This document shows, in pieces, positions 8,573 to 58,145 of a DNA stretch of 64,000 nt; within the stretch, counting starts at the first letter, position 1, and every line of letters begins with the position of its first letter. The position numbers were made by a program, and so were the translations under genes. The notes beneath the pieces are model-generated. The model did not search any database, was not told where the DNA came from, and worked only from the letters and a program-made list of their open reading frames with translations. Source of the DNA: Candidatus Omnitrophota bacterium (GTDB lineage Bacteria > Omnitrophota > Gorgyraeia > 2-02-FULL-51-18 > JAGOUK01); the NCBI GenBank assembly GCA_047639455.1, contig JBLINS010000001.1, positions 179 through 64,178 of the forward strand, given 5' to 3'.

Positions 8573-8810
8573 GTGAACAAGCGCGTCACCCTGAGCCACG
8601 CCTGCCTGCCGGCAGGCAGGCGAAGCAAGTGGCGTGAGGATCTCACAAAAATAGTTTGTAATAGTCAGCTATCATTAAGTTTAAAAGCATTCTGGTGGAT
8701 CCTTACAGCTCTTGCTCCGCAGAGCTTCACGATGACGCTATCATCTTTCAGCTACACAGAATTTCACACGCATGCATTCCTGCTGAGACGCCGAGCACTT
8801 CACTAATGAT
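8573..8810. repeat. dispersed intergenic palindromic repeat (MITE/REP-like family A plus a GCCTGCCTGCCGGCAGGCAGGC palindrome)
   Basis: Contains ...GGCGTGAGGATCTCACA... and aaaagcATTCTGGtGGATCCTTAC...CACGATGAC modules. These recur at 11155-11290, 25700-25845, 39640-39705 (inverted), 58040-58145 and 54135-54200. Confidence 0.7.
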
Positions 8811-8815
8811 TTAAA

Positions 8816-10042
8816 TTAAAGTTTAGTTTGGCCTGTGGTTGATTTGGGGCTGATATTTGCATTAAACTTGATCAGATCAGGATGAATTGTATTCATGAAT
8901 TCTTCAGCCGCGCGACGATGATCTGTTAATTTTACGCCAACCATATTCCATATCCCCGTAGTTGTCCGCATGATTTCGTGATCTCTCGAAATTGAATTAG
9001 CATTTTTGGCCTGCTTTGTTTTGAACAAGGGACGTATGCCAGCATCAGACTTAAGGATATCATCCACGCCGATATTTACTTTGGGAAAATAACGCTTAAT
9101 TGAATCTAATAAATATTCGATTTCATGGGTTGTGGCATGTACGAGATCAGGATTGGATTGAGAAGTTTCTGTTGTTCCAATGCGTACTTTGTCACCCATA
9201 TTTATGCAGAAGAAAATTCGCTTGTCCTTAGCTTGTAGCAAAACCGATGTGGCTAAAAATGGCTTGGTTTCGATATGACATCCACTCACAGGTGAGACCA
9301 AAGCTGGTGATGGATCTGACCCGCTCTTTAATATTTGGTCAATCCACGGCCCACCCGCATTGACTAATACCCGACCTTTATATTCTTTTTGCTCACCTTT
9401 AGAATTTTCAGTGCAGACTGTGTAAACTTGTTTTTGGACATCATGCTTATATTCAATGAGTCGTTCATATTCTTTTATGATTGCGCCGTTCTCACTGGCA
9501 GATCGTCCAACCGCTTTGACTAATTCTTGGTCAGTGGTCAGCCTATCCCAAAATTGAATACCACCAATTAGGCCATGTTCATCCAGCTGAGGCATTTTTT
9601 GTAGCATGCTTTTTTTTGTCCAATAAGCCGTCGGCGCTGTAGCTCGCCCAGAAAAACGAGCTAAGAAGTAATATAAATAAACACCCAGCATTGTAGTGAT
9701 TTTGCCTCGAGGGCTATGTTTGTATATAGGAATGATTATAGGTAGAGGTTTGACTAACTTGGGAGCTATGTATTCCAATAGACGACATTCGCCTAAGGAG
9801 AGGAAGACAAAACGAAAATTCTTATAAAAAACATCCAAGCGACCTTTTAGCAGCCCATCCCAAGCCAATTCCATATAACGAATGCCACCATGAATGAGTT
9901 TGGAGCTTTTGGAGCTGGTGCCCGACCCCAATAGGTTTTTTTCGATTAAAAGTGGCTTAGCACCCCTTAAAGCCGCATCTCGAGCAATGCCTGTGCCTGC
10001 AATTCCACCACCTATGATGATTAAGTCAAATATTTGTGCCAT
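8816..10042 (-). CDS. glpD: FAD-dependent glycerol-3-phosphate dehydrogenase
   Basis: N-terminal FAD fold DLIIIGGGIAGTGIARDAALRG and the GlpA/GlpD family. Convergent with glpK. Confidence 0.8.
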   Translation of the reverse strand: MAQIFDLIIIGGGIAGTGIARDAALRGAKPLLIEKNLLGSGTSSKSSKLIHGGIRYMELAWDGLLKGRLDVFYKNFRFVFLSLGECRLLEYIAPKLVKPLPIIIPIYKHSPRGKITTMLGVYLYYFLARFSGRATAPTAYWTKKSMLQKMPQLDEHGLIGGIQFWDRLTTDQELVKAVGRSASENGAIIKEYERLIEYKHDVQKQVYTVCTENSKGEQKEYKGRVLVNAGGPWIDQILKSGSDPSPALVSPVSGCHIETKPFLATSVLLQAKDKRIFFCINMGDKVRIGTTETSQSNPDLVHATTHEIEYLLDSIKRYFPKVNIGVDDILKSDAGIRPLFKTKQAKNANSISRDHEIMRTTTGIWNMVGVKLTDHRRAAEEFMNTIHPDLIKFNANISPKSTTGQTKL

Positions 10043-10197
10043 ATTAGTAGTCTAATTCCACTTGGTTATATGTATAAAAAGTATCAAAATCTTGTAATTA
10101 GGGCCTATATAGTGTAATTAAAAGGTAACAATCTTAAATATTGTTGATAGATTATAACAAATTTTAACTGATTTTAACAAAAAAATTATCTAAAATT

Positions 10198-11073
10198 ATG
10201 GCACAGACTAATATCATTGGATATAGAAAAAAACCAGCCTGGATTTATGTTGTAGCGACGTTTTTAATCCTCATTCCGCTACTTTCATACATTGAGCTTC
10301 ATTTGCGTGGAGGGGGATTCGCCACTATTCCCAAAGAGTTATTCTATCAAGAAATATTTTGTTCAGCATCTGCTGCACTAGCCATTTTGATTGTCACTCG
10401 TTTTAGTCTGCTCTATTTTTTAGGCCTTAGTACTTATTTCATTGGCTTTAAGTTAATTCAGGTTTATTCGGGTGGTTGGGGTACGCCATTTGAGTTGGCC
10501 GTGATTGTCTTTTGGCTGACGGCACCCCTTTTATTTGTAACCACTTCGCTCAAAATTCCGTATTTAAACCCCGCAGCACGTTGGTGGACGCAAGAAAAGC
10601 GTTTTACGCATATGAGTCGTGGAACTTTGAATTACAAAGGTATTAAATACCCTATTGTCATGATTGATTTTTCTGCTGGTGGCGCTTTTATTAAATTAGA
10701 TGAGCGTATTTTTAAAGAAGTTCCAAAGGATGATAAAGACAAGCGTGATGAAAAATCGATTGGTATTCGCCACCCATTTTTGGATGCCAAAGAAAGGCTT
10801 GTTGCTAAGAATTCTATGGAAGATTACCCGTCTGTTGAAGACGGCATTAAATTAAAAGTTCAAACATTACCAGGTTTAGACATTCCCTACAAAGAGGGTT
10901 ATTATGAAGTTAATGCAGAGGTGGTCTGGGCGACAAAAGCCACAGACCCAATTCAATACGGGCTAGGACTCAGATTCAAACATGATAGCTTAATCGAAAA
11001 GTTAAAGCTCAGTCGATATCTCTACGTTTTGCAACCCCGCTCTCGGCAACGCAATCACCGCGACCACACGTAA
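10198..11073 (+). CDS. membrane protein with C-terminal PilZ (c-di-GMP binding) domain
   Basis: Four N-terminal TM helices, then the RxxxR...D.S.GG PilZ signature (QEKRFTHMSRG ... IDFSAGGAFIK). Confidence 0.6.
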   Translation: MAQTNIIGYRKKPAWIYVVATFLILIPLLSYIELHLRGGGFATIPKELFYQEIFCSASAALAILIVTRFSLLYFLGLSTYFIGFKLIQVYSGGWGTPFELAVIVFWLTAPLLFVTTSLKIPYLNPAARWWTQEKRFTHMSRGTLNYKGIKYPIVMIDFSAGGAFIKLDERIFKEVPKDDKDKRDEKSIGIRHPFLDAKERLVAKNSMEDYPSVEDGIKLKVQTLPGLDIPYKEGYYEVNAEVVWATKATDPIQYGLGLRFKHDSLIEKLKLSRYLYVLQPRSRQRNHRDHT

Positions 11074-11154
11074 TAACATCCAACAACACACAACAACACT
11101 TTAGCTCTTATTTACCAGAATTAAATACAAAAACTTGCTACAATAAGTTTTGTT

Positions 11155-11290
11155 CAGCGCTCCTCATCGTGAGTGGAGCTGAAAAAAATGCTCCGACGTA
11201 ACGATCTAACACTAAAAGCATTTCTGGGAGATCCTCACGTCGCTGCTACGCGCTCCCCAGGATGACACATGCTGCTGACGCGTCATTTAA
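11155..11290. repeat. MITE/REP-like dispersed repeat, family A copy
   Basis: atgctccgacgtaaCgatctaacactaaaagcatttctgggagatcctcacg...ccaggatgac. About 85% identical to the copy at 25734-25807. Confidence 0.75.
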
Positions 11291-11317
11291 ACTTTTTATT
11301 AAGATAGCGAGAAAATT

Positions 11318-11779
11318 ATGCCCGAGCCATTTTTACCACCTGTAAAAGAATACAATGCCAGTGATGCTAACCCTTGCGAGGGATGTAGTAATTGTTGCGA
11401 ATACCTAGCTATCGAAATAGATAAGCCATCAACCGTCCCCGATTTTGAACAAATACTTTGGTATGTCATTCACAAAAATATTTGGGTTTATGTTTGCCAT
11501 GATAGTGATTGGCATATTCAATTCAATACTCCTTGCGAAAAGCTAGATAATCGACGCTGCACCTTTTATGTCAACCGTCCATCAATTTGTAGAGATTATG
11601 AGCCTGTTACATGCCCACGTTACGATGATGGGCCGGCGGAAAAGTATATGTTCAAAAATGAACATGATCTTTTTGCTTATTTAGCCAAACGCCGCCCAAA
11701 GACATTTGAAAAATTGCGCGTTAATATTAATTTGGCAGATTATCCGCCTAAGAAAAATAGCTCACCATTAGTGAAATAG
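11318..11779 (+). CDS. YkgJ-family Fe/Zn-binding protein (CxxCxxCC)
   Basis: CEGCSNCC motif plus a second Cys cluster; YkgJ/UPF0153 pattern. Confidence 0.6.
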   Translation: MPEPFLPPVKEYNASDANPCEGCSNCCEYLAIEIDKPSTVPDFEQILWYVIHKNIWVYVCHDSDWHIQFNTPCEKLDNRRCTFYVNRPSICRDYEPVTCPRYDDGPAEKYMFKNEHDLFAYLAKRRPKTFEKLRVNINLADYPPKKNSSPLVK

Positions 11780-11837
11780 ATTTAACTTCACGCAATATAA
11801 CTAAATGGTAACTTTCACCACAACTTAAGGAAAGCAT

Positions 11838-12059
11838 ATGCCTAGTCCAGCCGCTAATCAAAAATCCCTTAAAAAGCTTAAGGGTTCCAAAGTTAGAATA
11901 TTCAAAATCACTAATCGAGTCGGATATGCAGCTATTGCTGAAAATAATTTGACTGAGGGAGGCTCTCCGGCAGAAGCTTATGATCGTATGACCAAAGCCT
12001 TGAAGCGATCTGGCTTCGAAGTAATTGGTGCGGCACCCAAGGTTAGTAAGCACATTTAA
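11838..12059 (+). CDS. small protein, possibly YegP/DUF1508-like
   Basis: 73 aa with a good RBS (aaggaaagcatATG). Weak pattern similarity to the YegP repeat. Confidence 0.35.
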   Translation: MPSPAANQKSLKKLKGSKVRIFKITNRVGYAAIAENNLTEGGSPAEAYDRMTKALKRSGFEVIGAAPKVSKHI

Positions 12060-12217
12060 CTCTATAGAGTTCAGCAATATTGATATAGCCTTAGATTGTG
12101 CCCGTGCCTGACCGCAAAGGCAGGACACTAATGCCGGTGTAGTTGGGGTGAAACCGGCCCACGTCGCTTGCTTCTCGCTTCTCGCAATGACGTTACTTTG
12201 CAAGCGCGTTTTAATTA

Positions 12218-12258
12218 AAAAAGCCTTAGACTTCGCGAGAAGTCTAAGGCTTTTTTAA
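12218..12258. terminator. bidirectional intrinsic terminator
   Basis: aaaaaaGCCTTAGACTTCtcgcgaGAAGTCTAAGGCtttttt, lying between convergent genes. Confidence 0.65.
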
Positions 12259-12275
12259 GTTTAATAATTAGCGAA

Positions 12276-12908
12276 TTAACTTTTGATCGAAACCTTAACC
12301 ATTTTGATTTCTTCGCGTGGCTTGTCACTGCCATCCTTATCGGCGCCGGCTATTTTGTGGACTACGTCCATACCCGCTGTGACTTTACCAAAAACAGCAT
12401 GCTTGCCGTCTAACCAAGGTGTCGCCGCTTCAGTGATGAAGAATTGGCTTCCATTTGTATTGGGTCCGGAATTAGCCATAGAGAGAACTCCAGCTTCTGA
12501 ATGCGAGAGCTCAGAAACAAATTCATCCTCAAACGAATAGCCTGGACCACCCATGCCGGTACCCGTTGGGTCACCGGTTTGAATCATGAATTGTGGTATC
12601 ACGCGATGAAAGATGATTCCATCATAAAAGCCTTCATTGGCTAATTTAACGAAGTTAGCAACCGTTTTGGGGGCTTGACCAGAATAGAGTTCTATATCGA
12701 TCACGCCTTTATTTGTTTCTATTTGAGCGAGGGTTACAGAAGTGTCTTGAGCATTATTTGTCATGAGTGGGGCATCCTTTGTTTTGGGTTCAGGAGCATT
12801 TCCGGAACCAGATAGTACCAATAAACAGGTTAGAACAGTGAACACAGAAAGAATTGGTTTTATTTTCATCACAAGAGTTTGCAAAAACATCGTAATTTTG
12901 TCAATCAC
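12276..12908 (-). CDS. ppiA: periplasmic cyclophilin-type peptidyl-prolyl isomerase
   Basis: Signal peptide plus the cyclophilin core [18 protein letters not shown]...G.SQFFIT. Confidence 0.85.
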
Positions 12909-12968
12909 TAATGTAGTTTATGCCTCAATATTTGCTATAATTGTGGATAATTCAAATAGGGGAATGAT

Positions 12969-13556
12969 ATGAAAAAAATATTTGCGGTTTTAGTGTCTTT
13001 GGGAGTTTGTTTGAGTTCTGTGCTTGCTATGGCCGCTGCACCTGATTTCACATTGAGTGATACGCATGGGCAGACGCATTCATTGGCTGACTTTGGCGGT
13101 AAGCATGTGGTTCTGGAGTGGTTTAATCCTGATTGCCCGTATGTGCGTAAACATTATGATAGTGGCAATATGCAGGCGTTACAAGGTAAGTATGTAGAAC
13201 AAGGTGTTGTTTGGCTGTCTATTAATTCTTCTGCGCAAGGTAAGCAGGGTCATTATCAGCCTGGGGAGTATAATGAGATTTTGAGCCAGCGAGATTCACA
13301 AGCCACGGCTTTGTTATTGGATCATGACGGAGTTGCAGGACATACCTTTGGAGCAAAGACGACACCACATATGTTCATTATTGATCCTAAGGGTCGGATC
13401 ATTTATAGCGGGGCTATTGATGATAATTCATCAGCCAATCCTAGAGATGCGCTCACAGCCGACAATTATGTAGCTCAAGCCTTAGATGAAGCCTTAGGTG
13501 GAGATGAGGTTTCACTACCCAAAACACGTTCTTATGGCTGTTCAGTCAAATACTAG
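12969..13556 (+). CDS. secreted thioredoxin-fold (redoxin/TlpA-like) protein
   Basis: Signal peptide. WFNPDCPYV motif with a single Cys. AhpC/TSA/redoxin-like fold pattern. Confidence 0.5.
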   Translation: MKKIFAVLVSLGVCLSSVLAMAAAPDFTLSDTHGQTHSLADFGGKHVVLEWFNPDCPYVRKHYDSGNMQALQGKYVEQGVVWLSINSSAQGKQGHYQPGEYNEILSQRDSQATALLLDHDGVAGHTFGAKTTPHMFIIDPKGRIIYSGAIDDNSSANPRDALTADNYVAQALDEALGGDEVSLPKTRSYGCSVKY

Positions 13557-13568
13557 CAGGGAGAAATA

Positions 13569-14951: not shown

Positions 14952-14953
14952 TC

Positions 14954-17368: not shown

Positions 17369-17378
17369 GTAAGAATTA

Positions 17379-22719: not shown

Positions 22720-22822
22720 TCCTAGATTGTCACAGGACTTGCTCCGCGCCCTTCGCAACGACGTGATTTGTTCGGTAACCAGCACCCCATAATTTGCAGA
22801 ATTTTGTTAGACTCTTTATCTA

Positions 22823-24214
22823 ATGAAACAAACTAATCATACTCTTTGCTGTGAGATTGTTACGCACGACAAAAAACGTCGTGCTCACAATGACATGATT
22901 GTATTAGCCGCAATTTTCTATTTCCTAATTAATTTGATTCATCCGCTGCAAATAATTTTTGCTGATGAAAGCAACCCTATCAATTTTGAGTCTATGATTT
23001 CATTGGAACATGCATCTGTCGTTGAGACTTATAAAGGCTATTCTGATTATTATATTTTTCATATACAGGATGCGCATGCCCATTATGGAGCTCAAAAGAA
23101 TTTAGCCAAAATTCTGGATGACATGATTCGACAATTTGGAATTAAATGGGTTTTTATCGAGGGTGGAGTTGGTAACGACTCATTATCTTTTTTAAGAACA
23201 CTAGCCACTAAGGAGATACGAACCAAAGTAGCAGATCGATATTTGGAGTCTGGCAATATATCGGGTGCTGAGTATTTAGACATAGTGTCAGACTTGGATA
23301 TTAAGTTATGGGGTATGGAGGATCAGGATTTGTATAAGGAGTCCAGACTCCTTTATAGGCAGGTCTTAGAGAGCCGCTCTACAATTCTCACGTATTTAGA
23401 CGATATGGCCAATTTGGTTGACGAATTTAAAGACGCTCACAAAAACTCAGCACTTAAAGAATTAGAAATTCAAATAGACGCCTTGAATGCCAATGATGGT
23501 GGCTTTGAATCTTATTTAAATCTATTGATCAAAACGCATCCCCAAAAAGAATTATTACTAGAAGATTATGACATGGCGGATCGGTTTGATCGTAGCCAAC
23601 GTTTGCAGAAAGAAATTCTAAATGAGTCGTCAATACTTAAGCGCAATGAATTGCAATTAATGTATAGCAAAATATCACAAGGCTTAGACATCGGCACATT
23701 ATGGTCAGAAGCAAACCTTTTGGAATCTGATTTGATCCATGAAATGGCAAAGAATGAAGATTTGGAAAAGCTCACGATTCTCTCGAGGCGCATTCGTTTG
23801 CTTAGAGAATATTTTTTAATACAAGTAAGGCCATATGAATTGGATTTTTATCAAAATAACCCTTCTGAATTTAGGGCTGAGGAATGGGTGGTTTTTTTGA
23901 ACCGCTTAATCAAAGACCGCAAGATGAATAGAGATTTCATTTATTATAGGCCATCCATCGAGCTCGCCCAAAAACGCATCAATAGTTTTTATGCCAATAC
24001 TGAGAAACGTGACATAGCTTTTATTAAAAACAGCTTAAAAAAAATGGATGAGGTTAATGAGTCCAAGGCCGTCATTATTAGTGGCGGGTACCATACGCCA
24101 CATTTAACTAAGCGCTTACGGGAGAAAGGCGTCTCATATGTTGTTATGGCACCACATATTGAGGGTCCTTGGAGTAAGTCTAAGTATGACGATTTGCTAC
24201 TGAGCGCCCTCTAG
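22823..24214 (+). CDS. membrane-anchored TraB/GumN (Tiki-like) family protein with a long helical insert
   Basis: N-terminal TM. YIFHIQDAHAHYG near the N-terminus and VIISGGYHTPHL near the C-terminus resemble the split TraB/GumN signature motifs. Confidence 0.4.
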   Translation: MKQTNHTLCCEIVTHDKKRRAHNDMIVLAAIFYFLINLIHPLQIIFADESNPINFESMISLEHASVVETYKGYSDYYIFHIQDAHAHYGAQKNLAKILDDMIRQFGIKWVFIEGGVGNDSLSFLRTLATKEIRTKVADRYLESGNISGAEYLDIVSDLDIKLWGMEDQDLYKESRLLYRQVLESRSTILTYLDDMANLVDEFKDAHKNSALKELEIQIDALNANDGGFESYLNLLIKTHPQKELLLEDYDMADRFDRSQRLQKEILNESSILKRNELQLMYSKISQGLDIGTLWSEANLLESDLIHEMAKNEDLEKLTILSRRIRLLREYFLIQVRPYELDFYQNNPSEFRAEEWVVFLNRLIKDRKMNRDFIYYRPSIELAQKRINSFYANTEKRDIAFIKNSLKKMDEVNESKAVIISGGYHTPHLTKRLREKGVSYVVMAPHIEGPWSKSKYDDLLLSAL

Positions 24215-25699: not shown

Positions 25700-25845
25700 A
25701 TATCGTCATCATGAGTTGGAGCTAATAAATTATATGCTCCGACGTAATGATCTCACAGCCAAAAGCTCTTCTGGGAGACCCTCACGTCGCTACGCTCCTC
25801 AGGATGACATGAGTGCGCCTGAGAGATTCCCAGGATGACGTCAGT
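25700..25845. repeat. MITE/REP-like dispersed repeat, family A copy
   Basis: Near-duplicate of 11155-11290, with two CAGGATGAC ends. Confidence 0.75.
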
Positions 25846-39115: not shown

Positions 39116-39460
39116 GAGTCTGTGCCCGCATAATCGATATGCCCTCCACAATCTGATTGTTGAAACTAATTTTGTGAACGCAGCTCCTACAGAAATGGCG
39201 TGAACATCAATCTATTAAACAACACGCCATCTCAGTGCGAGCTGTCTTAATCACAAAATACGTCAACAATCAAAATTGTTCCGGATATACCGATTATGCG
39301 GACACTAATTATCAATGTACTAAAACTCCTCAAAAAATATAATTAATGGAAAATAAAATTAAGACAAAAGGATGCGCCTATAGGCAGCGGGTATCCTCAC
39401 CGCCGCAAAGTCTAAAAGCGGTTAACCCATTAAGAGTTTAGGCTGTTTAAAACCTGGCGG
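39116..39460. repeat. composite structured repeat element, copy 1 (candidate ncRNA / non-autonomous element)
   Basis: A long imperfect hairpin of about 180 nt (39124-39300; arms caatctgattgttga / tcaacaatcaaaattg; inner stems cagctc/gagctg and ggcgtg/cacgcc). Then a gcgcctataggcagcgggtatcc module and an aaaaccTGGCggtttt hairpin. A second copy lies at 61965-62400. Confidence 0.6.
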
Positions 39461-39625
39461 TTTTAAAGACGCAGCTTAGACAAGGAATCCTGAAAACCTG
39501 GCGGTTTTAAAGACGCAGCTTAGACAAGGAATCCTGAAAACCTGGCGGTTTTAAAGACGCAGGCTATAACAAGGAATCCTGAAAACCGGGCGGTTTTAAA
39601 GGCACGGGTTTGAAACAGATTACGA
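39457..39625. repeat. 44-bp tandem direct repeat x about 3.5
   Basis: Unit gaaaacctggcggttttaaagacgcagcttagacaaggaatcct. Each unit contains the small hairpin AAAACC-tggc-GGTTTT. Confidence 0.85.
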
Positions 39626-39639
39626 AAACCCTTGTTCGC

Positions 39640-39705
39640 CACAGTCATCCTGAGCCACCACGTAGTAGGTGGCGTGAGGATCCCACAGAATGTCTTTAGA
39701 CTATG
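39640..39705. repeat. MITE/REP-like dispersed repeat, family A copy (inverted orientation)
   Basis: gtcatcctgagccaccacgtagtaggtggcgtgaggatcccacagaatg is the reverse complement of the cattctg..gatcctcacg...caggatgac consensus. Confidence 0.7.
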
Positions 39706-39836
39706 TTTTTGACAACTTTTTGCATGTTTGAAAGCGGTTAACCCATTAAGAGTTTAGGCTGTTTAAAACCTCGCGGTGTTAATGACGCAGGCTTTATAAA
39801 ATGGAATTCTAAAAACTTGTAGTTGAAGCTGTGAAT

Positions 39837-41392: not shown

Positions 41393-41436
41393 ACGTCATT
41401 GCGAGTTACGCGTAGCAGTAACGCGGCAATCTAGGG
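41393..41436. repeat. dispersed repeat family B (CGTCATTGCGAG...GCGTAGCAG.AACGCGGCAATC)
   Basis: Reverse-complement match to 3801-3842. The related short motif CT(C/T)CGCAA(T/C)GA(C/T)G recurs at 12181, 22751, 47984, 41513, 54180 and 8726. Confidence 0.7.
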
Positions 41437-41817
41437 TAAATTAGATTCTGGACGTCAGATATCAATGGATTTGGGTAGTTATTAGACCTAGATTACCGCG
41501 GCCACAAAACGGCCTCGTAATGACGGGGTGCTGTGACATGCATGGTATTTGGTTGCGGGGTGTGGTTGATTAATAGTACAGAAACTAAGTTAAATTAAGC
41601 AATAATAAGTATAATTGACGCATACTTTCGAGGATGATACAATCTTATTTCACTGATTTATAGCTTTGCGGACAATCTTTTGGAATGCGCATTTAAATCT
41701 TTCATATTCTTATAATTTATATATAATAGGGCTCTTTTCATTGAGCACCCCACCTTTATTTTAAGGCGCTTTTGGGGTTATTTTAATAGATAATTAAACA
41801 TTTGATACAGGAAACAT

Positions 41818-46152: not shown

Positions 46153-47116
46153 GCCTTTTCTTAATTTACTCTCGCTAAGCCTATGTTTATCGCTCATTGC
46201 CCTATCGGGATGCGCTGTTGAACCTTCGTTTCCTGGGAGCCAAATTGAAGAAAAGATCAAATCCATTTGTAAGGAATTGTACGGCTTAGATGTTTTGAGC
46301 CAAAATGCTGGCGGAACCATTGGTGCCATGCTCTATTTAGATAGCATGCTGGATGAAGCTGGCACACAAATCCCCAAGGATATCCACGTAAAATTAGGTA
46401 ATTTAACTTCTGTTGTTTCGCGTGTAGCCCTATCAACTGATCAAGACATTAACTTCATCGTCGTAGGTATACGTGGTCGTAGTGAGGGTATTGAATTGCT
46501 GATTATTCGCAATATTTATGACATCAAAAAAGCGCAAACCGAAGCTTTGTCGATTACTGAATCGATGAAGCGGACTGTCTTCAAGCAATCGCGCTACGAT
46601 GTTAAAGATGTTAAGGGTGAGGTGTTTGAATTAAAGGACCTTTCTTTAGAGGACTTTGTTATTCAGCAGATTTTGCAGAGAGTCCGCTATGCTGACGATG
46701 GCAAAACTGAGAAAAAAGATGATGATGAGGAAGAGGCGCCAGCTCCAGAAGCACCTCAAGAGCTCTTTGATGGTAGACATATCGAAACATCTGAAGGAAT
46801 TGTATTCGACCTCTCATTATTATCTTTTGATACCAATAACTCATTAAGTAAATTGCAGCAAATGCTTATCGATAGTAAAGACGTTTTTGAGGGTTATAAA
46901 TTCAAAGATTATGACAAACTAATTGTTCGTGATCTTTTGAATGGCCGTAAAGTCGAGCTTGATAGGCAGACTATGGATATGTACATCAGTAAACAAATTA
47001 CTATCGAAAGCATTATGGATCAATACTTGGAAATGGACACGAATCGATCATCTATGTTCAAGAATGCTTTAGAGGTATTCGGCGTTGATGGCATTACCTC
47101 GAATGCCCAAAAGTAA
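46136..47116 (+). CDS. lipoprotein of unknown function
   Basis: A GTG start gives a textbook lipoprotein signal VKQSNKPFLNLLSLSLCLSLIALSG|C. The alternative ATG at 46016 overlaps ftsH by 137 nt. Acidic Ala/Pro-rich linker. Confidence 0.5.
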   Translation: MKQSNKPFLNLLSLSLCLSLIALSGCAVEPSFPGSQIEEKIKSICKELYGLDVLSQNAGGTIGAMLYLDSMLDEAGTQIPKDIHVKLGNLTSVVSRVALSTDQDINFIVVGIRGRSEGIELLIIRNIYDIKKAQTEALSITESMKRTVFKQSRYDVKDVKGEVFELKDLSLEDFVIQQILQRVRYADDGKTEKKDDDEEEAPAPEAPQELFDGRHIETSEGIVFDLSLLSFDTNNSLSKLQQMLIDSKDVFEGYKFKDYDKLIVRDLLNGRKVELDRQTMDMYISKQITIESIMDQYLEMDTNRSSMFKNALEVFGVDGITSNAQK

Positions 47117-47975
47117 GTACACCCTTCACAAAAAAGCCTATGCCAAAGTTAATTTGGTTCTCAAAGTTTTAAATAAGAGACCCGACGGTTTTAATAATAT
47201 CCAAACATTGTTTGAACGCATCAGCCTCTATGATGAATTATCTTTTGGCCTTAAAAAAGAGGGCATAACTCTCACCACCAATGCTAAGGGGCTGCCCACT
47301 GATTCCAAAAACTTAGTCGTCCAGGCAGCGCTCAAATTGCAATCCGTTTGCAAAGTTAATCGGGGCGCCTATATTCACTTAAAAAAGAATTTGCCTATTG
47401 CCTCTGGAGTTGGCGCGGGTTCGAGTGACGCGGCCGCAACATTAATGGCCCTCAATCAACTTTGGAAACTCAAATTAAGCACTAAGCAATTAGCGCAATT
47501 AGGGTCTGAATTTGGGAGTGATATATCTTTTTTTACATTGAATACACCATTTGCCATTGGCCAAGGACGCGGAGAAAAGCTAAAAGCTCTGAATAGCAAA
47601 AGAAGGTTTCACCACGTATTTTTAACGCCCCGCTTAGAAGTATCTGCGGGCTCTGTTTATAAATCTCTTCGCTCACAGTGGCACACACCTAATGTATCCA
47701 CGACTGAAATAGCACATGGACTCAAATCTGTTACAAACTCGAATGTACGCGATTTTGTGTGGAATATTTTAGAATTACCCATTCTAGCCAAATACCCACA
47801 AATAGGAATACTCAAGCAAGACTTCCTCAAAGCGGGCGCCGATTTCGCCTGCGTATCCGGAAGTGGCCCAACCCTATTCACCATTTGTAATACGCCTAAA
47901 CAAGCTCAAAATATAGCCCATAAACTAAGCCAAACCCACCCCAAAGCCTATATCGCTACTGCCACCACTATGTAA
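47085..47975 (+). CDS. ispE: 4-diphosphocytidyl-2-C-methyl-D-erythritol kinase
   Basis: GHMP kinase. AYAKVNLVLKVL... and PIASGVGAGSSDAAA motifs. The true start is probably the internal ATG (MPKSKY...). Confidence 0.85.
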   Translation: MMALPRMPKSKYTLHKKAYAKVNLVLKVLNKRPDGFNNIQTLFERISLYDELSFGLKKEGITLTTNAKGLPTDSKNLVVQAALKLQSVCKVNRGAYIHLKKNLPIASGVGAGSSDAAATLMALNQLWKLKLSTKQLAQLGSEFGSDISFFTLNTPFAIGQGRGEKLKALNSKRRFHHVFLTPRLEVSAGSVYKSLRSQWHTPNVSTTEIAHGLKSVTNSNVRDFVWNILELPILAKYPQIGILKQDFLKAGADFACVSGSGPTLFTICNTPKQAQNIAHKLSQTHPKAYIATATTM

Positions 47976-48082
47976 TTCGCGTCCTTCGCAATGATGCTAG
48001 TTAAAAATAATTCAGACACACAGAATTGCACACTCTCAAACTACGGTTTAACGCACCACTTGCTTCTACGATGTTCCGTAAT

Positions 48083-48922
48083 CTAAACTTCGAATGTTTC
48101 TGGGTCTAGGGTCTCGGTGACCTTCATTTCAGACTCAAGTATTGATCCATCTGGATTGTAGGTGATCTTAATCCGCATAGTTGCTTTAGACCAATCCGTT
48201 TCTCCATCTGCAAGTTTGAGCCAAGTTTCGACGTATGTGCCGTCGGGTGCCGTGCTCACGAGCACTAATTCCATACCATCCAAAACAGGCTTTTCGGTCG
48301 ATGTGGTCGTGGTTGTGGCGGAAACCGATTCAATTATGTTCGTTTCAGCTGATGATATGATGAGAATATAGTCATAATTATATTCGGAGTCAGCTGGTGG
48401 ATTGAAATAAGTATTTAACTTTCCATCACTACTTAAGAATTGATTTTTTAATTCCCAGGTCGACAAATCAATTGTTTGTATTTCGGGCTCTACGACAACG
48501 TCAGCCCGCTCCCTCTGTTTTAGAGAGTGATATCGATTTTCAGATTTATGATAGGTTGTTTTTGGGTCGCCATGATAGAGCTTGGCTTCGACTGTATTGA
48601 GATGAGTCTTTTTTATAGGCGTATAGTTAATCGATTTAAATCTGTTACTGCTTATATCATTGAATACATTTTGGCCTAATCGCCGGAGTGATTCGATAAT
48701 CGATTTTGAATTGGCTTTAACTTTAGCCTTATTGCCCAAAGCCGTATTTCTGTCCGATATTTGTTTGATTTTTTTATACTTTTGTAATTGCTTGGGGGTA
48801 TGAATGGGCATTACATTATTTTTATTCTGAACATGCCCTTTGGGACCAGCTATACTTGGACAGGCGATGATTAATGTGCTCAATGTGAAGATTATTGCTG
48901 TGAGTGTTGAGATACGTTTCAC
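48083..48922 (-). CDS. secreted hypothetical protein with a Thr-rich segment
   Basis: Signal peptide. SATTTTTSTEKP stretch. No recognisable domain. Confidence 0.45.
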   Translation of the reverse strand: MKRISTLTAIIFTLSTLIIACPSIAGPKGHVQNKNNVMPIHTPKQLQKYKKIKQISDRNTALGNKAKVKANSKSIIESLRRLGQNVFNDISSNRFKSINYTPIKKTHLNTVEAKLYHGDPKTTYHKSENRYHSLKQRERADVVVEPEIQTIDLSTWELKNQFLSSDGKLNTYFNPPADSEYNYDYILIISSAETNIIESVSATTTTTSTEKPVLDGMELVLVSTAPDGTYVETWLKLADGETDWSKATMRIKITYNPDGSILESEMKVTETLDPETFEV

Positions 48923-49222
48923 TTTACACCTCTTTTCTATTGGTAGCCTGGCTGACCTTCCTTCATTGTAAGGGGAGGTTCCATGGTTTTGCGTCCCATG
49001 TTTTCACATGGTTTGCCAGCATATAAATGCTTTTGCTACCCCTGTTAGGGGTTTTTTCTTTAAAAGAGCTTTGAGAGCACCCATATTGTGCCCTAATAAG
49101 AGTATAGGCGACAAAATAGGAGAATTCAAGGCAACTAATCTAAATATAACCTAAATTAAATCTAAATATTGACTATTATTAAGCAATTCTAAGCAGTGGC
49201 AACTACAGGTGTTGTTTCGGCT

Positions 49223-52188: not shown

Positions 52189-52262
52189 TGCCTGATGGTG
52201 TAATGGTAACACACGGCCCTTTGGAGGCTGTATTCTAGGTTCGAGCCCTAGTCGGGCAACCA
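52189..52262 (+). tRNA. tRNA-Gln (anticodon TTG), CCA encoded
   Basis: Acceptor TGCCTGA/TCGGGCA (U1:A72). D arm GTG-taatggtaa-CAC. Anticodon arm CGGCC-cuUUGga-GGCTG. T arm CTAGG-TTCGAGC-CCTAG. Discriminator A followed by CCA. Confidence 0.8.
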
Positions 52263-52277
52263 CTTACAAACGGCCAG

Positions 52278-52640
52278 TCAAATTTGACTGGCCGTTTGTA
52301 ATTTGGATTGTGCCCAACAGGACGTAAAAAGTCCTGTCTCGGCCGGTTCCCTTCTAGGGGCCTCACTGACTCGGCCCGCTCGTAGCATGGGCTCTTTATT
52401 CATCGCCCACTCGCTACCAGCATTTGGTGTCCTGATTGGGAAATCAGGCACCAGCACAACCAAATTAAAATAATGGGCTGTGCCCCAAATAAGGGGGTAG
52501 GTTCTGAAATGGTAATATGTGTTTATTAGCACAAGACCGAGCCAGACTTGTGAGTCAAATTTGACTGGCTGTTTGTAATTTGGATTGTGCCCAACAGGAC
52601 GTAAAACGTCCTGTCTCGGCCGGTTCTCTTTTGGTTCACC
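52278..52640. repeat. two approximately 90-bp direct repeats (52278-52365, 52553-52640) flanking a 187-bp palindrome-rich spacer
   Basis: Unit tcaaatttgactggcYgtttgtaatttggattgtgcccaacaggacgtaaaaMgtcctgtctcggccggttc. Each unit has a perfect CGGCCAGTCAAATTTGACTGGCCG palindrome. Confidence 0.8.
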
Positions 52641-52708
52641 AGCATAAAGAGATTGGTGTATGCTGGGGTTAAAGAAGACCATATTAAATACTTTGAGGGT
52701 GGAAATTA

Positions 52709-54132: not shown

Positions 54133-54134
54133 TA

Positions 54135-54200
54135 TGAGATGGCCACGCCTGCCGCGCTTGCCTGCCGAGAGGCAGGCGACTCGCCATGACGGGGCTGGGG
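54135..54200. repeat. dispersed palindromic repeat (GCCTGCC...GGCAGGC module plus family B motif)
   Basis: ccacgcctgccgcgcttgcctgccgagaggcaggcgactcgccatgacgggg; compare 8573-8640. Confidence 0.6.
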
Positions 54201-54259
54201 GCAATGTGTGATAAAATTGCTGATTAATTTACGCGCGGGTTGACTTGGGGGAATGAGAA

Positions 54260-54649
54260 ATGAAGAAAATATTTGGTTTAGTATTAATGATCGCAGTTGT
54301 AGGTGTTAGCGTTCCAAGTGTTGTTTGTGCTGAAGCGCCAGGATGGGCTGCAAAGGCCAAAGCTGACGCTAAAGGCAAAATGGGCAATGTTAAAAAGGCT
54401 GCCAAAAAAATGGCTAAAAAAGAGTTTAAGAATGTTCGAAAAGAAGCCAAGGTTCAATTCAAAGCTGCCAAACAATCTGCTAAATCCGCGTTTGCTCAAG
54501 CTAAAGTAGCCGCTAAGCAATTAGACGGTGAAGCGCGTAAAGCTGCAATGAAACAAGCTAAAGTTGTTAAAAATAGGGCTGTAGGCAAAGCTAAAGAAAT
54601 GAAGTCCAAAGCCGTTCAAAGAGCTAAAGACGCTATTAATAAAATGTAA
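54260..54649 (+). CDS. secreted Lys/Ala-rich low-complexity protein
   Basis: Signal peptide, then about 100 aa of AKxAxK-type repeats. Histone H1/LEA-like composition. Confidence 0.5.
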   Translation: MKKIFGLVLMIAVVGVSVPSVVCAEAPGWAAKAKADAKGKMGNVKKAAKKMAKKEFKNVRKEAKVQFKAAKQSAKSAFAQAKVAAKQLDGEARKAAMKQAKVVKNRAVGKAKEMKSKAVQRAKDAINKM

Positions 54650-54654
54650 TTAGA

Positions 54655-54785
54655 TTGTCATCCCCGCGGAGGCGGGGATCTAACAATTATTGCGTAGTGC
54701 AGGTTCTGGATCCCCGCCTTCGAGGGGATGACATTGTTCGCGGGGATGACATTGTTCGCGGGGATGACAAGAGTTTGATTTTGGG
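54655..54785. repeat. GGGGATGAC/GTCATCCCC palindromic and 18-bp tandem repeat array
   Basis: atccccgc-gga-gcggggat hairpin plus cgaggggatgacattgtt / cgcggggatgacattgtt / cgcggggatgac. This accounts for the spurious N-terminus of ORF 54655. Confidence 0.8.
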
Positions 54786-54798
54786 ATACAATTCGCAT

Positions 54799-55296
54799 AT
54801 GAATAAATATACGATTATTGGCATATTGGCCATTGGTTTTTTGAGTCGCTTGATTCCACATATGTGGAATTTTACGCCTGTATTGGCATTGGCATTGTTT
54901 GCCGGCATTCATTTGCCTAAGAAGCAAATGTTCTTAGTGCCTCTAGCGCTAATGTTCATGTCCGATATATTTTTGGGCATATATCCCGGAATACTTTTTA
55001 CCTGGGTGGCTGTACTCGGAAGCGTGTGCGTTGGTTTATTGCTGCGCGAGAATCGTACTTTATTAAAATTAACCTTGGGCGGCTTCGGCGCGGCCCTTGT
55101 ATTCTTCTTTATTTCAAATCTCGGTGTTTGGGTGTTTCAATATCCCAAGACAGTTACCGGTTTATCTAATTGCTATATGATGGCGATACCATTTTTTAGA
55201 AATACTTTATTCAGCACGATTTGCTATAGCATCGTTTTGGTTGGCGGTTATGATTGGGTTCTTAATCGTATTGTGGTTCGTCAGGTAGCTAAATAG
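54799..55296 (+). CDS. small polytopic membrane protein (5 TM), possible substrate-capture / ECF-S-like transporter component
   Basis: Start at MNKYTIIG. Hydrophobic throughout. Lies immediately upstream of the B12 riboswitch-btuB unit. Confidence 0.4.
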   Translation: MNKYTIIGILAIGFLSRLIPHMWNFTPVLALALFAGIHLPKKQMFLVPLALMFMSDIFLGIYPGILFTWVAVLGSVCVGLLLRENRTLLKLTLGGFGAALVFFFISNLGVWVFQYPKTVTGLSNCYMMAIPFFRNTLFSTICYSIVLVGGYDWVLNRIVVRQVAK

Positions 55297-55374
55297 TTTT
55301 TAAGCATTAAAATAGTTCTTTAATAAATTAAATATATTTTGGCACCTAGCTTATTTGTATTCGTTGATAAGTGA

Positions 55375-55550
55375 GGTTTAATGAGGGAATTGGGTGAGAA
55401 TCCCAGACGGTCCCGCCACGGTAAGGTTATTACAACCAAGTCCGAATACCACCAAAATATGAAGTGATCATGATTCACGCAAGATGAGCATGATTGTAGT
55501 CGAGACCAAGATTAACGGGTATGCTCTCCAGAGCATACCCGTTTTTTTGT
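55375..55550 (+). promoter_or_regulatory. cobalamin (B12) riboswitch with terminator expression platform
   Basis: GGGAAuuGGGUGagAAUCCC ... CCCGCCACgGUAA ... AAGUCCGAAUACC core. Followed by the hairpin AACGGGTATGCTCTCCAGAGCATACCCGTT plus T7, upstream of a TonB-dependent receptor. Confidence 0.75.
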
Positions 55551-55573
55551 ATGGAAAAAGTGAGTGTTACATA

Positions 55574-57598
55574 ATGAAAAAAAGAAAAAGAATTATAGTT
55601 GGTGTGCTAATCGGGCAATTATTTTGTGCCCATATTTTGAGAGCAGAAATGACTTTTGAACCATCGAAAGTGGTTGTGGATGAGCGAGTTGATAAGGTGA
55701 TCGTTACAGGCACACGCATTGCCAATTATGCTTATGAATTGACTGGGGACATGACTGTGATAGATGCTGAACAAATTTCGGCATCTGGAGCTCATAGCGT
55801 AGCCGATGTATTGGAGCAAGTCGCCGGAGTGAATGTTTACGATCGGAGCACGCCTAAGACGTCCATTGTCGATATACGTGGGTTTGGAGATGCATCTGTG
55901 AGCAATGTCCTCATTCTTGTGAATGATCGGAAGCTCAATTCAGTTGATTTGTCAGGGCCAGACCTGATTCAAATACCCATAGAAGCTGTTGAGCGCATAG
56001 AAATACTTAGAGGGGCTGGTAGTGTTTTGTATGGTGACAATGCTGTTGCTGGCGTTATCAATATCATCACCAAAAAAGGTTCTGGAGATTTGGCTATTGA
56101 ATGGACAAATCAATACGGTAGTTATGATCGCTACAAATCCTCAGGTCAAATTTCGGGTCAAGTAGATGCATTGGGGTATTATGCCTATATGAGTTATGAC
56201 GATTACAAGGGTTATAGAGATCGAAGTGATGTATTGGCACGAAATTTTAATTCACGATTCACCTATGAATGGGGTGATCGCGTTGACGTTGATATTGAAA
56301 TAGGCGGACATAATGATTCAACTAAATTACCTGGTGGTTTAGATGAAGCTGAACTTGTAGGGTTTGGGCGAAGGGGTGCCGCCGATACTAACTTCTCCAA
56401 AACCGAAGACTTTTTTACGCGTTTAGGCGTGGATATAGCTATAGGCCCTGAAGCTGGGCAATGGGGTAGTTTTGTTTTTGATTTGACTTATAAGGATAGG
56501 GATGTTCTCGATTCGTTCTTTGGCACATTTAATTCTAATCGAACTATAAAGCAATGGGGTTTATTGTCTAAGTATGTGTTTGATCACGAATTATTTGGTA
56601 AGGATATAGATTTTGTATTAGGTTTTGATTTATATGATACGGATAATGATATCCTTGGCAGTGGCACAAATTCAGACGATATCACGATATCCAAAAGTGA
56701 AATCGGCTTTTATGGATTCCTAGAATTCGAAACATTAGATAATTTGTATTTGAATTTGGGATCGCGCTATCAAGAAGCAGAGTATGACTTTGATGATAGA
56801 GGTAGCTCTGAATTCACATCCCAAAACCCGGATGAATGGTCCTCACTTGTAGGGATGAAGTATATGTTGGCGCCAGGATCGAATATTTTCCTTAACTATC
56901 AGAAGACCTTTAGGTTTTTGGCAACGGATGAATGGTATAGCACTTTTTCGGGGCTTAATACGACACTCAAACAACAAACAGGTGAACAGTTTGAATTTGG
57001 GATTAAGTACAGTCTTAATGAATGGGCTGAAGGTAGTGTCACGCCCTATCGTATGGATATCACGGATGAAATCTATTTTGATCCGAGCACATTTGTGAAT
57101 GATAATTACGAACAGACTCGTCGTGATGGAATAGAATACGCGCTTAATTTGAATCTATTAGAATTCATAGATTCTAAATCTGTGAATAAGTTAGACTTGC
57201 GTTTAGCCTATGCCTATCAAGATCCTGAGTTTAGAGGTGGGGTGAGTGACGGTAATGTTATTCCATTAGTGCCCAAACATTTATTTACGCAACAAATTGT
57301 GCTTAAATGCTGGGACAACTTCCTATTCTCATTACAAGGACGTCATGTGGGTGATAGGGTGATAGGAAATGATTTGGATAATAATAAGGCTAAGGCAAGG
57401 GATTATTATATTGCTGATGCACGTTTTGCCTATCAACAAAAGAATGTGGAGATATTCATTGAATTAAATAATCTCTTTGATACCAAGTATAATACTTATG
57501 AGATTGAGAAAACTGTAATCGCGAATACAGGCATCACACGTGACGTTTATCCAGCTGAAGAGTTTAATATGAACTTTGGAGTCAAGGTTAAGTTTTAG
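55574..57598 (+). CDS. btuB: TonB-dependent outer-membrane receptor (BtuB-like, B12 uptake)
   Basis: Signal peptide, TonB box DKVIVTGTR, plug plus a 22-strand barrel, and a C-terminal Phe. Riboswitch-controlled. The ORF-track start 55484 lies inside the riboswitch. Confidence 0.8.
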   Translation: MKKRKRIIVGVLIGQLFCAHILRAEMTFEPSKVVVDERVDKVIVTGTRIANYAYELTGDMTVIDAEQISASGAHSVADVLEQVAGVNVYDRSTPKTSIVDIRGFGDASVSNVLILVNDRKLNSVDLSGPDLIQIPIEAVERIEILRGAGSVLYGDNAVAGVINIITKKGSGDLAIEWTNQYGSYDRYKSSGQISGQVDALGYYAYMSYDDYKGYRDRSDVLARNFNSRFTYEWGDRVDVDIEIGGHNDSTKLPGGLDEAELVGFGRRGAADTNFSKTEDFFTRLGVDIAIGPEAGQWGSFVFDLTYKDRDVLDSFFGTFNSNRTIKQWGLLSKYVFDHELFGKDIDFVLGFDLYDTDNDILGSGTNSDDITISKSEIGFYGFLEFETLDNLYLNLGSRYQEAEYDFDDRGSSEFTSQNPDEWSSLVGMKYMLAPGSNIFLNYQKTFRFLATDEWYSTFSGLNTTLKQQTGEQFEFGIKYSLNEWAEGSVTPYRMDITDEIYFDPSTFVNDNYEQTRRDGIEYALNLNLLEFIDSKSVNKLDLRLAYAYQDPEFRGGVSDGNVIPLVPKHLFTQQIVLKCWDNFLFSLQGRHVGDRVIGNDLDNNKAKARDYYIADARFAYQQKNVEIFIELNNLFDTKYNTYEIEKTVIANTGITRDVYPAEEFNMNFGVKVKF

Positions 57599-57611
57599 AA
57601 TGGTTTAATTT

Positions 57612-57950
57612 ATGTGGAAAAAACAAAACCAACATCCGAATTGCAAAGAAATCAATTGCCCTCCTCATAATCCGATTAAGGATTATGAGGAGGATCCGGG
57701 TTGTTATGTATTAATCCGAATTGACATGCAAAAAAAGAATATCGAAATAGCTCTATGTAATTACGAGCATAAAATCACGCATATCTTCATTGGCAAAACA
57801 GCCCAATCTATTTACCACACTCTATTCGAATCTGAAAAGCAAGAGCCTCAAGCTTGGTTCACCAATAAAGAGCATATAGCCTATTTAGGTAAAGAACTTA
57901 AAAAAGCTGAAGTTGCTTTAGCTGGTAATACTGAATATATACAGGAATAA
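57612..57950 (+). CDS. hypothetical protein (112 aa)
   Basis: Follows btuB by 13 nt. CKEINCPPH motif. No known domain. Confidence 0.4.
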   Translation: MWKKQNQHPNCKEINCPPHNPIKDYEEDPGCYVLIRIDMQKKNIEIALCNYEHKITHIFIGKTAQSIYHTLFESEKQEPQAWFTNKEHIAYLGKELKKAEVALAGNTEYIQE

Positions 57951-58039
57951 TTGAGAAGGTCTGATTTTAGGTGTCCAAAATATATGGATGACTCATTTTC
58001 AAGATTGTCATTGTGAGACACTCTAATAAATTATAATGG

Positions 58040-58145
58040 GTGTCGTAACAATCTCACAGCAAAAGTCTTTTAATTGGTTATTTGCATTGAGTCTGAAAGC
58101 ATTCTGGGAGATCCTTACGCCAAAAGCGGCTCAGGATGACAGTCT
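58040..58145. repeat. MITE/REP-like dispersed repeat, family A copy
   Basis: gtcgtaacaatctcacagcaaaagtc...aaagcattctgggagatccttacg...ctcaggatgac. Confidence 0.7.

Follow-up and report, generated by a model that had tools for sequence, protein, structure and literature searches.

Oriented hairpin repeats resembling the NTS/SRM class are dispersed through the intergenic spacers of a Candidatus Omnitrophota genome

We have analysed a stretch of 64,000 nucleotides, hereafter the window, from a Candidatus Omnitrophota bacterium (assembly GCA_047639455.1, contig JBLINS010000001.1, positions 179 to 64,178 of the forward strand) and find that its intergenic spacers contain a dispersed palindromic repeat family that is similar to repetitive extragenic palindromes (REP). 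The repeating entity is an oriented hairpin unit of 24–60 nt, present in ~22 copies or fragments at 12 loci of the 64-kb window. The original prediction had proposed a single element of 85–130 bp with terminal inverted repeats; what appeared to be one such element is instead two autonomous units of 24–60 nt, placed in inverted orientation with a spacer between them. On balance, we favor the interpretation that the window records a lineage-specific expansion of an oriented hairpin DNA repeat of the NTS/SRM (GTCAT...ATC) class, with an Ssn-like nuclease as its probable partner. The family is thus best filed as a new two-tiered, partly doublet-forming NTS/SRM-class repeat, and not as a new kind of system.

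The unit consists, in order, of GTC, AT-NNN, GAG, a variable inner hairpin, C-G-Y-R, N'N'N'-AT and C-T. The outer stem arm of 5–6 nt starts with AT, and the complementary arm ends in AT, followed by C-T. The interior measures 4–40 nt (~85 nt in one degenerate copy) and is usually a separate hairpin, with GCGTAGCAGC, GCCTGCC...GGCAGGC and T-rich loops as recurrent modules. Interiors are unrelated between copies, whereas the short arms covary. In an alignment of 20 units, T5, C6, T26 and C27 never vary, and conservation is at least 90% at G4, A7, T8 and A25; 19 of the 20 units start with GTCA and the remaining one with GTCG. Eight outer-stem sequences are present (ATTGC, ATCCT, ATTGT, ATCGT, ATCAT, ATGGC, ATTAC and ATCCCC), and across the aligned units the three inner stem pairs vary jointly while GTC, AT...AT and the 3' C remain near-invariant. 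Two sub-families are distinguished by their 3' flanks. In the first, hereafter family A, ATC-TC(A/C)CAG is followed by a AATGCTTTT-like sequence, so that the tail beyond ATC comprises ~15 nt (TC[A/C]CAG-AATGCTTTT); the second has ATC-TAG.

The enrichment of these units is clear from a seed that does not presuppose pairing. The seed GTC-A[TC]NNN-GAG occurs 13 times in the window, compared to 1.7 expected, and nine of the 13 are followed within 60 nt by an exact reverse-complement stem plus C, compared to 0.015 expected from 200 first-order Markov simulations. These nine units use six different stem sequences. We give this test more weight than the covariation in the arms alignment, because most of the aligned units (17 from the window and three from a sister species) were chosen partly by complementarity. 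In that alignment, 97% of the stem cells are paired (76.7% after shuffling), and changes on both sides are found in three of the five stem pairs (28 cells), a level reached in none of 500 shuffles. A strict palindrome (GTC + AYNNN ... exact reverse complement + C) gives 16 matches, compared to 2.0 ± 1.5 in 100 dinucleotide shuffles. With the GAG and G-Y requirements added, the window has 0.30 matches per kb; for unrelated bacterial DNA (1.27 Mb), the figure is 0.037. The control DNA (0.9–1.3 Mb) was taken from the loci of a GlpK metagenome scan, in which the best relatives are at most 61% identical, too distant for a comparison of empty sites.

A covariance model built from the 20 units has 18 matches in the window, with E-values from 8e-12 to 0.0065; one of these lies outside the training set, and the next best match has an E-value of 0.44. 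On the control loci, the same model gives two weak matches in 908 kb. When folded as DNA, single units adopt a two-tier hairpin, in which an internal loop joins a 5-bp outer stem to an inner stem-loop, and doublets can form one long hairpin, with fold z-scores ranging overall from −0.2 to −8.3. Repeat detection agrees with this census (families D2, D3, D7, D10, D12 and D15; inverted pairs I1, I7 and I11).

Family A is found chiefly in inverted doublets whose units meet tail to tail, their GTC ends facing outward, each doublet being a plus-strand unit followed by a minus-strand unit, at 8585–8736, 11163–11266, 25705–25808 and 58007–58140. The pairs at 41395–41524 and 54657–54732, which are not family A, are likewise arranged tail to tail. 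Thus, six convergent doublets are present, all plus then minus (8585/8698, 11163/11230, 25705/25777, 41395/41491, 54657/54709 and 58007/58110), together with one tandem pair (22725/22855) and no divergent pair. Units are also found singly, as half-units and as minimal hairpins of 24 nt. Outside the six doublets, single units lie on the minus strand at seven loci and on the plus strand at one (binomial p ~0.07 by locus, from small numbers). GC skew is positive along the entire 64-kb window (G+C ~40%), and skew and gene direction identify the plus strand as the leading strand. With this bias of the singles, the forward, putatively cleavable, strand would not be exposed as lagging-strand template.

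Related sequence is present at all six sites of the original prediction, and all of them lie between called genes, as it had stated. The predicted similarity between 11188–11270 and 25734–25809 is 84% over 81 nt (BLASTN, E 5e-16). The relatedness of 58040–58145 was confirmed by matches to 8629–8706 (72% over 79 nt, E 5e-9), 25762–25809 and 39641–39702, and that of 54135–54200 by 77% identity over 47 nt to 8599–8645. The array at 54655–54785 does share the GTCATCC/GGATGAC ends and belongs to the same unit family. The boundaries required revision, since the actual doublets span 8585–8736 (not 8573–8810), 11163–11266, 25705–25808 (plus a partial unit to 25839) and 58007–58140; at the last of these, the 5' arm of the first unit had been missed, so that the true start is 58007. 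The list of sites was also incomplete, as six more loci were found at 3754–3837, 12088–12194, 22725–22894, 41395–41524, 47975–47996 and 54657–54768. Sensitive BLASTN of the elements against the window returned further copies at 3769–3842, 12159–12192, 22797–22864, 41394–41433 and 41489–41527.

The closest counterpart of these units is the NTS of Neisseria (CGTCATTCCCGCGMAVGCGGGAATCYRG), which contains the dRS3 repeat and was described by Chenal et al. in 2025 (PMC11893778). It is bound and cut by SsnA, a 94-residue single-domain GIY-YIG nuclease, as single-stranded DNA only and on one strand only (PMC11893778). For SsnA of N. meningitidis, cleavage is governed by the three nucleotides that directly precede the palindrome, and no base matters more for binding than the C immediately 3' of it (PMC11893778). 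The invariant bases of the window units (GTC 5' and C 3' of the palindrome) correspond to these determinants. Both repeats are oriented hairpins with GTC directly 5' of an AT...AT palindrome, then C, then T/C-R-G, and both occur between genes in many copies. Of the window copies, the minimal unit at 54657 (GTCATCCCCGCGGAGGCGGGGATCTAA) is nearest to the NTS: the two agree at 23 of 28 positions, and two of the differing positions compensate each other as a pair. Additionally, the ATTGC-type units end in ATCTAG, which fits the NTS ending ATCYRG. The two also differ in several respects. Most window units are two-tiered: their outer stem has 5 bp, the internal loop is a conserved GAG / C-G-Y-R, and the variable inner hairpin measures 8–40 nt. 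Family A carries the extra ~15-nt 3' tail, and at least eight stem variants coexist in the window. The host also differs, being a Candidatus Omnitrophota in which no ssn gene was seen in the regions searched.

The two-tier variant is linked to GIY-YIG genes at two loci from other organisms. Across phyla, ssn genes are typically flanked by motifs of this type (PMC11893778). Locus L190, on a contig labelled viral, encodes a 98-residue protein with a GIY-YIG domain only (Pfam E 1e-14), identical to a Flavobacterium beibuense entry. Tail-to-tail doublets of GTCATTGCGAG...GCAATC units lie on either side of this gene, amounting to 10 units within 13.6 kb, and the arms of these units are identical to those of window units 3801 and 41395. 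The covariance model derived from the window matches seven of them. In control locus L136, inverted GTCACCCTGAG... units enclose a further GIY-YIG gene. A scan of contigs labelled viral returned 65 stretches with GTCATTGCGAG-N(8-38)-CGSRGCAATCT and three with the ATCCT analogue. Three IMG/VR contigs labelled viral (L143, L144 and L145; 57–60% G+C) contain ATCCT-type and ATTGC-type two-tier units on single contigs, arranged as tail-to-tail pairs with ATC-TCGG tails. The unit class is widespread, and populations with mixed stems are common. This agrees with the expectation of the original prediction that the repeats are not confined to the window, as does their presence in other contigs and in a sister species (see below).

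We infer that the Omnitrophota genome encodes, outside the region analysed, a small single-domain GIY-YIG (Ssn-like) nuclease that would recognise the hairpin into which a unit is expected to fold in single-stranded DNA. Binding would be guided by the stem together with the 3' C, and cleavage by the 5' GTC. The activity of this nuclease, or recombination between copies, would then spread and replace the units.

Several observations weigh against this proposal. Regular-expression, tblastn and profile searches covered the window, 2.3 kb past its end (L141) and 34 kb of sister DNA (loci L138 and L142) and identified no GIY-YIG gene. Among the best 120 of the 7,897 relatives returned by a database search with the Flavobacterium GIY-YIG protein, none is labelled Omnitrophota, and membership of this protein in cd10448, the family that defines Ssn, could not be confirmed. 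To our knowledge, no mechanism for the dissemination of NTS/SRM-class repeats has been established. The published SRM pattern, HGTCWYN(0-2)YYVSBRHN(0-5)WNVSBRGN(0-2)RNCYNB, has no match in the window, the interior of the window units being longer and two-tiered. This objection is weakened by the result for L190, in which the pattern has no match either, although 10 units surround the Flavobacterium GIY-YIG gene there. Finally, a change in the Neisseria palindrome that kept the hairpin abolished SsnA activity (PMC11893778). Given this specificity, eight stems in one genome would require either a tolerant enzyme or several enzymes.

Comparison with related genomes indicates rapid turnover. In the sister species GCA_041294365.1 (94% amino-acid identity for PurB and 87% for GlpD, ~86% nucleotide identity), two syntenic loci allowed five orthologous spacers to be compared. 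The purB-purS spacer is 209 bp in the window, with a family-A doublet and a partial unit, and 94 bp in the sister, with an ATTGC-type unit that is 95% identical to the window unit at 3799–3839, a different locus. The glpK-glpD spacer (282 bp) corresponds to 119 bp in the sister, with a different tail-to-tail doublet of the ATTGC type. Between the PilZ and CxxCxxCC genes, the window spacer (244 bp) has an extra segment of ~105 nt bounded by GCGCTCCYCA, and the sister spacer (120 bp) has a half-unit only. This difference may reflect either an insertion in the window or a deletion in the sister; the 10-nt direct repeat is itself part of the unit sequence, and a slippage deletion fits equally well. 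The spacer between the genes for a 73-residue protein and a peptidylprolyl isomerase is 216 bp in the window and 94 bp in the sister, where no unit is present; the terminator hairpin beside unit 12088..12194 (12222–12255) is conserved there. At the RDD site, both genomes have units with the same arms and different interiors. The family-A tail was not found in the 34 kb of sister DNA.

Empty sites in relatives, which the original prediction had suggested looking for, are found at greater distance: in two other Omnitrophota (PurB 72% and 66% identical), the purB-purS spacers measure 0–1 bp and contain no unit, and the covariance model detects no units in 64 kb of DNA from these two genomes. As units in the sister differ or are absent at orthologous sites and the sites in distant relatives are empty, the unit family is therefore confined to a narrow lineage and is turning over quickly. 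The 18-mer TTCTGGGAGAYCCTYACG of family A was compared with 185,579 species-representative genomes and gave 56 matches, none element-like, compared to an estimate of ~70 chance matches (at 1 in 1.7e10 for the two strands of 596 Gb); matches at chance level indicate that neither the source genome nor this sub-family is among the scanned representatives. Within the strain itself, copies exist beyond the window, as short-read contigs end at 3827 and start at 8700, each inside a unit. Such breaks are expected of multi-copy repeats.

All three comparable family-A doublets sit where the sister has a different unit or a half-unit. New units may replace, or nest into, existing units of the class and not land at random, although we regard this as doubtful. 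An Ssn-type nick at a hairpin in single-stranded DNA could be followed by copying from another unit, a homing or gene-conversion-like copy-in. The same three doublets suggest replacement at pre-existing units, which would also be expected if the units were passive sequences with no dedicated enzyme, either homogenised by gene conversion or recombination or serving as integration targets of IS110/IS1111-type elements or phages. A precedent is Neisseria dRS3, a reported target of a phage recombinase (PMC11893778). However, no insertion sequence (IS) or phage gene lies beside any unit in ~100 kb of this lineage, and the asymmetric GTC and 3' C are strictly kept across eight stem variants and across phyla, which points to recognition by a protein. 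Thus, a purely passive origin is unlikely.

Mobilisation as REP or REPIN elements by a REP-associated tyrosine transposase (RAYT) of the IS200/IS605-related type, encoded elsewhere and anticipated in the original prediction, is about equally improbable. The units are indeed intergenic hairpin repeats, all six inverted pairs are close doublets that can fold as one long hairpin, as in the REPIN arrangement (PMC3337134, PMC3116915), and the strand bias of the single units (one locus on the plus strand, seven on the minus strand) is as expected for processes that depend on single-stranded DNA. The window units share with the REP, BIME and REPIN elements of Pseudomonas, Enterobacteria and Stenotrophomonas the form of short intergenic palindromes, mainly in inverted doublets foldable into a long hairpin, as well as species-specific sequence classes and rapid turnover between relatives. 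However, the defining feature of RAYT-type REPs is a GT(A/G)G tetranucleotide that adjoins the palindrome on its 5' side (PMC3686654), and the window units start with GTCA or GTCG. The conserved 5' ends of the doublets point outward, no Y1 transposase is among the annotated genes of the window or of the sister loci, and the units with identical arms elsewhere flank a GIY-YIG gene and not a RAYT. The NTS/SRM class is therefore the closer match.

The doublets, at 100–150 bp, could alternatively be classical miniature inverted-repeat transposable elements (MITEs), that is, internally deleted ISs with terminal inverted repeats that are mobilised in trans by a DDE transposase. Bacterial examples include the Correia elements, RPEs and the Coxiella QMITEs. 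Like these, the window repeats are small, non-coding, multi-copy, intergenic and bounded by inverted repeats; the doublets have inverted termini (GTCATNNNGAG ... CTCNNNATGAC) and a size within the MITE range, and at the PilZ site the ~105 nt that the sister lacks are enclosed by a 10-nt direct repeat. However, target-site duplications were looked for and none flank the four family-A doublets, whose 6-nt flanks share no direct repeat, and at the PilZ site, where the 10-nt repeat falls within the sequence of units, a slippage deletion explains the difference equally well. Besides doublets, there are single units, tandem units, half-units and minimal hairpins of 24 nt; the units have no consistent length, and their interiors are unrelated although the short arms covary. 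The repeat is thus a hairpin of 24–60 nt, not a composite of 100–150 bp, and no transposase is nearby. We consider the MITE interpretation very unlikely.

A second, unrelated repeat of ~190–220 bp in the window bears a closer likeness to a true MITE than does family A. It occurs at 39120–39306 and 61970–62188, with terminal inverted repeats of 31–32 nt (GTGCCCGCATAATCGATATGCCCTCCACAAT ... ATTGTTCCGGATATACCGATTATGCGGACAC). Aligned over 252 columns, the two copies have 160 identical positions; over the final 60 nt, their identity is 92%. Part of a third copy is found immediately past the window end (L141 4059–4143), and a short-read contig starts at 62142, inside a copy.

All 12 loci lie between called genes, either 3' of plus-strand genes, between convergent genes or, once, between divergent genes. 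Most copies are thus found just 3' of plus-strand genes or between convergent genes and form stable hairpins, as expected if they acted mainly as RNA, as stabilisers of 3' untranslated regions, attenuators or terminators selected in place, and not as mobile or enzyme-targeted DNA; we find this least probable, as both orientations are used, a divergent promoter region is occupied (41395–41524), units have no T-tract and none in 3000–13000 is called terminator-like, whereas the conserved terminator at 12222–12255 is separate, units are not conserved at orthologous sister sites although their flanks are, and no Rfam family matches. The terminator role suggested in the original prediction is not supported by these features. 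In the Rfam search of the window, only the transfer-messenger RNA (tmRNA), a tRNA and two riboswitches reach the gathering score, and the units remain at chance level in E-value mode. On sequence inspection, integron attC sites were set aside for want of RYYYAAC/GTTRRRY ends and cassettes, and CRISPR arrays for want of regular spacing.

The leftmost locus contains two units. A partial one (3754..3779, no strand assigned, from sequence reading) is a degenerate symmetric hairpin, AGATTGC-N13-GCAATC, without the GTC end; it is separated by 21 nt from the next unit, and the sister genome also has units there. Its neighbor (3801..3837, minus strand) is a full unit with the ATTGC stem, GTCATTGCGAG-GCGCGCGTAGCAGCAAC-GCGGCAATC, and a TAA/TAG-type 3' flank (covariance model 51.4 bits, E 8e-12); it is 90% complementary to 41394–41433 and 95% identical to a sister unit at another locus. 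Doublet D begins with 8585..8642 (plus strand, model E 1e-8), which comprises GTCACCCTGAG, the inner palindrome GCCTGCCTGCCGGCAGGCAGGC, then CGTGAGGATC and the tail TCACAA, and whose inner module is common to 54138–54190 and to sister L142 16077–16139. The right unit, 8698..8736 (minus strand, E 2e-7), has an ATCGT/AGGAT stem with one mismatch and the tail CACCAGAATGCTTTT. Doublet A consists of 11163..11206 (plus strand, E 4e-7), with an ATCGT/ACGAT stem and C instead of G as its first base, which lies within the ~105-nt segment missing from the sister, and of 11230..11266 (minus strand, E 4e-11), with an ATCCT/AGGAT stem, the inner module GCGTAGCAGC and the tail TCCCAGAAATGCTTTT.

The long or degenerate unit at 12088..12194 (minus strand, E 6e-6) is the match outside the training set. 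Its arms, 5' GTCATTGCGAG at 12181–12191 and 3' CACAATCTAA at 12088–12097, were joined across the ~85-nt interior by the covariance model. The tandem pair has both members in the same orientation. The first, 22725..22762 (minus strand, E 1e-7), reads GTCGTTGCGAA...GTGACAATC-TAG; the other, 22855..22894 (minus strand, fold z −3.75, E 2e-7), combines an ATTGT/ACAAT outer stem and a CACGAC/GTCGTG inner stem with the family-A tail TCACAGCAAAG and matches 58044–58106 at 75% over 68 nt. In doublet B, 25705..25752 (plus strand, E 3e-8) has an ATCAT/ATGAT stem and the tail TCACAGCCAAAAGC, and 25777..25808 (minus strand, E 1.5e-8) has an ATCCT/AGGGT stem with one mismatch and the tail TCCCAGAAGAGCTTTT. 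Directly adjoining it is a collapsed, partial third unit, GTCATCCTGGGAATCTCTCAGG..., which has no inner hairpin (25809..25839, minus strand, from sequence reading and a nested pattern match).

Two mechanical open reading frames (ORFs) overlap units, one at 11748–12203 (minus strand) and the other, 22823–24214, in its first 24 codons. An ATG farther downstream and the gene calls made on other contigs speak against genuine coding in these overlaps. The true start of ORF 22823–24214 is probably the ATG at 22895, as the upstream-most ATG is overlapped by unit 22855..22894.

The single unit at 39644..39682 (plus strand, two-tier hairpin z −3.35, E 7e-10) reads GTCATCCTGAG-CCACCACGTAGTAGGTGG-CGTGAGGATC with the tail CCACAGAATGTCTTT. 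It is located in a dense repeat patchwork within one 720-bp spacer, between four 44-bp tandem repeats (ACAAGGAATCCTGAAAACCTGGCGGTTTTAAAGACGCAGCTTAG, 39436–39632) and one copy of a 65-nt direct repeat (39410–39474 and 39726–39790, 92% identical) that frames them. The ATTGC-type doublet in the divergent region upstream of hisG (z −3.93) consists of 41395..41431 (plus strand, E 2e-10) and 41491..41524 (minus strand, ATTAC/GTAAT stem, E 1.6e-5). A remnant of a 5' arm, ATCATTGCGAAGGACGCGAAT, lies directly 3' of the stop codon of ORF 47085–47975 (47975..47996, minus strand, repeat detection family D2). The single unit at 54138..54190 (minus strand, E 3e-7) has an ATGGC/GCCAT stem and the inner module GCCTGCC...GGCAGGC. 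The minimal unit GTCATCCCCGCGGAGGCGGGGATC, without an inner hairpin (54657..54680, plus strand, E 2e-4), forms a perfect long hairpin with its inverted partner (54709..54732, minus strand, z −8.27, E 0.0065, inverted pair I11), and two tandem half-units of 18 bp follow (TTGTTCGCGGGGATGACA twice; 54733..54768, minus strand, from sequence reading and nested pattern matches). In doublet C, 58007..58053 (plus strand, E 2e-8) has an ATTGT/ACAAT stem and the tail TCACAGCAAAAGTCTTTT, and 58110..58140 (minus strand, E 3e-8) has an ATCCT/AGGAT stem and the tail TCCCAGAATGCTTTC.

The genes of the window are housekeeping genes (glpK, glpD, purB, purS-purQ-purL-purF-purM, hisG and metH), and Pfam and NCBIfam searches of those adjoining units returned just housekeeping or unknown proteins. 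The window also encodes tmRNA, tRNA-Gln, a cyclic di-GMP-I riboswitch and a cobalamin riboswitch. The tmRNA gene (612–1037) has an unusual predicted tag peptide, AKTTSVNSFQVPAFRLPVMSPMAI, without the common ALAA-type ending. The cyclic di-GMP-I riboswitch (48939–49027, minus strand) is upstream of a 279-residue protein with no Pfam match (48083–48922, minus strand), and the cobalamin riboswitch (55323–55470, plus strand) is upstream of a 704-residue ORF (55484–57598). Directly 3' of tRNA-Gln (52189–52262), direct repeats of 78 nt (52276–52353 and 52553–52630, 96% identical), each beginning with the palindrome TTACAAACGGCCAGTCAAATTTGACTGGCCGTTTGTAA, bracket ~200 nt; this pair (52264–52630 region) may represent the att-like duplication of an element that had integrated here. 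A sequence of ~55 nt by the tmRNA gene (492–548) resembles, in reverse complement, 52357–52410 by tRNA-Gln (GGGGCCTCACTGACTCGGCCC..GTAGCA..), with a core of 21 nt at 95% complementarity.

GTCAT...ATC hairpin repeats are very common in genomes and metagenomes and were linked to a function only in 2025, when Ssn GIY-YIG nucleases were described as targeting single-stranded DNA and modulating transformation in Neisseria (PMC11893778). The present analysis adds an expansion of this repeat class in an uncultivated Omnitrophota lineage, a widespread two-tier variant that the published SRM pattern misses, also around a Flavobacterium GIY-YIG gene, and the replacement of copies at corresponding intergenic sites in two sister species. 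In practical terms, the units break short-read assemblies, create spurious ORFs and inflate intergenic regions. If an Ssn-type nick does trigger copying from another unit, the two-tier units with their interchangeable inner hairpins would be the footprint of this copy-in, and this pair of Omnitrophota species would offer a first handle on how NTS/SRM-class repeats spread.

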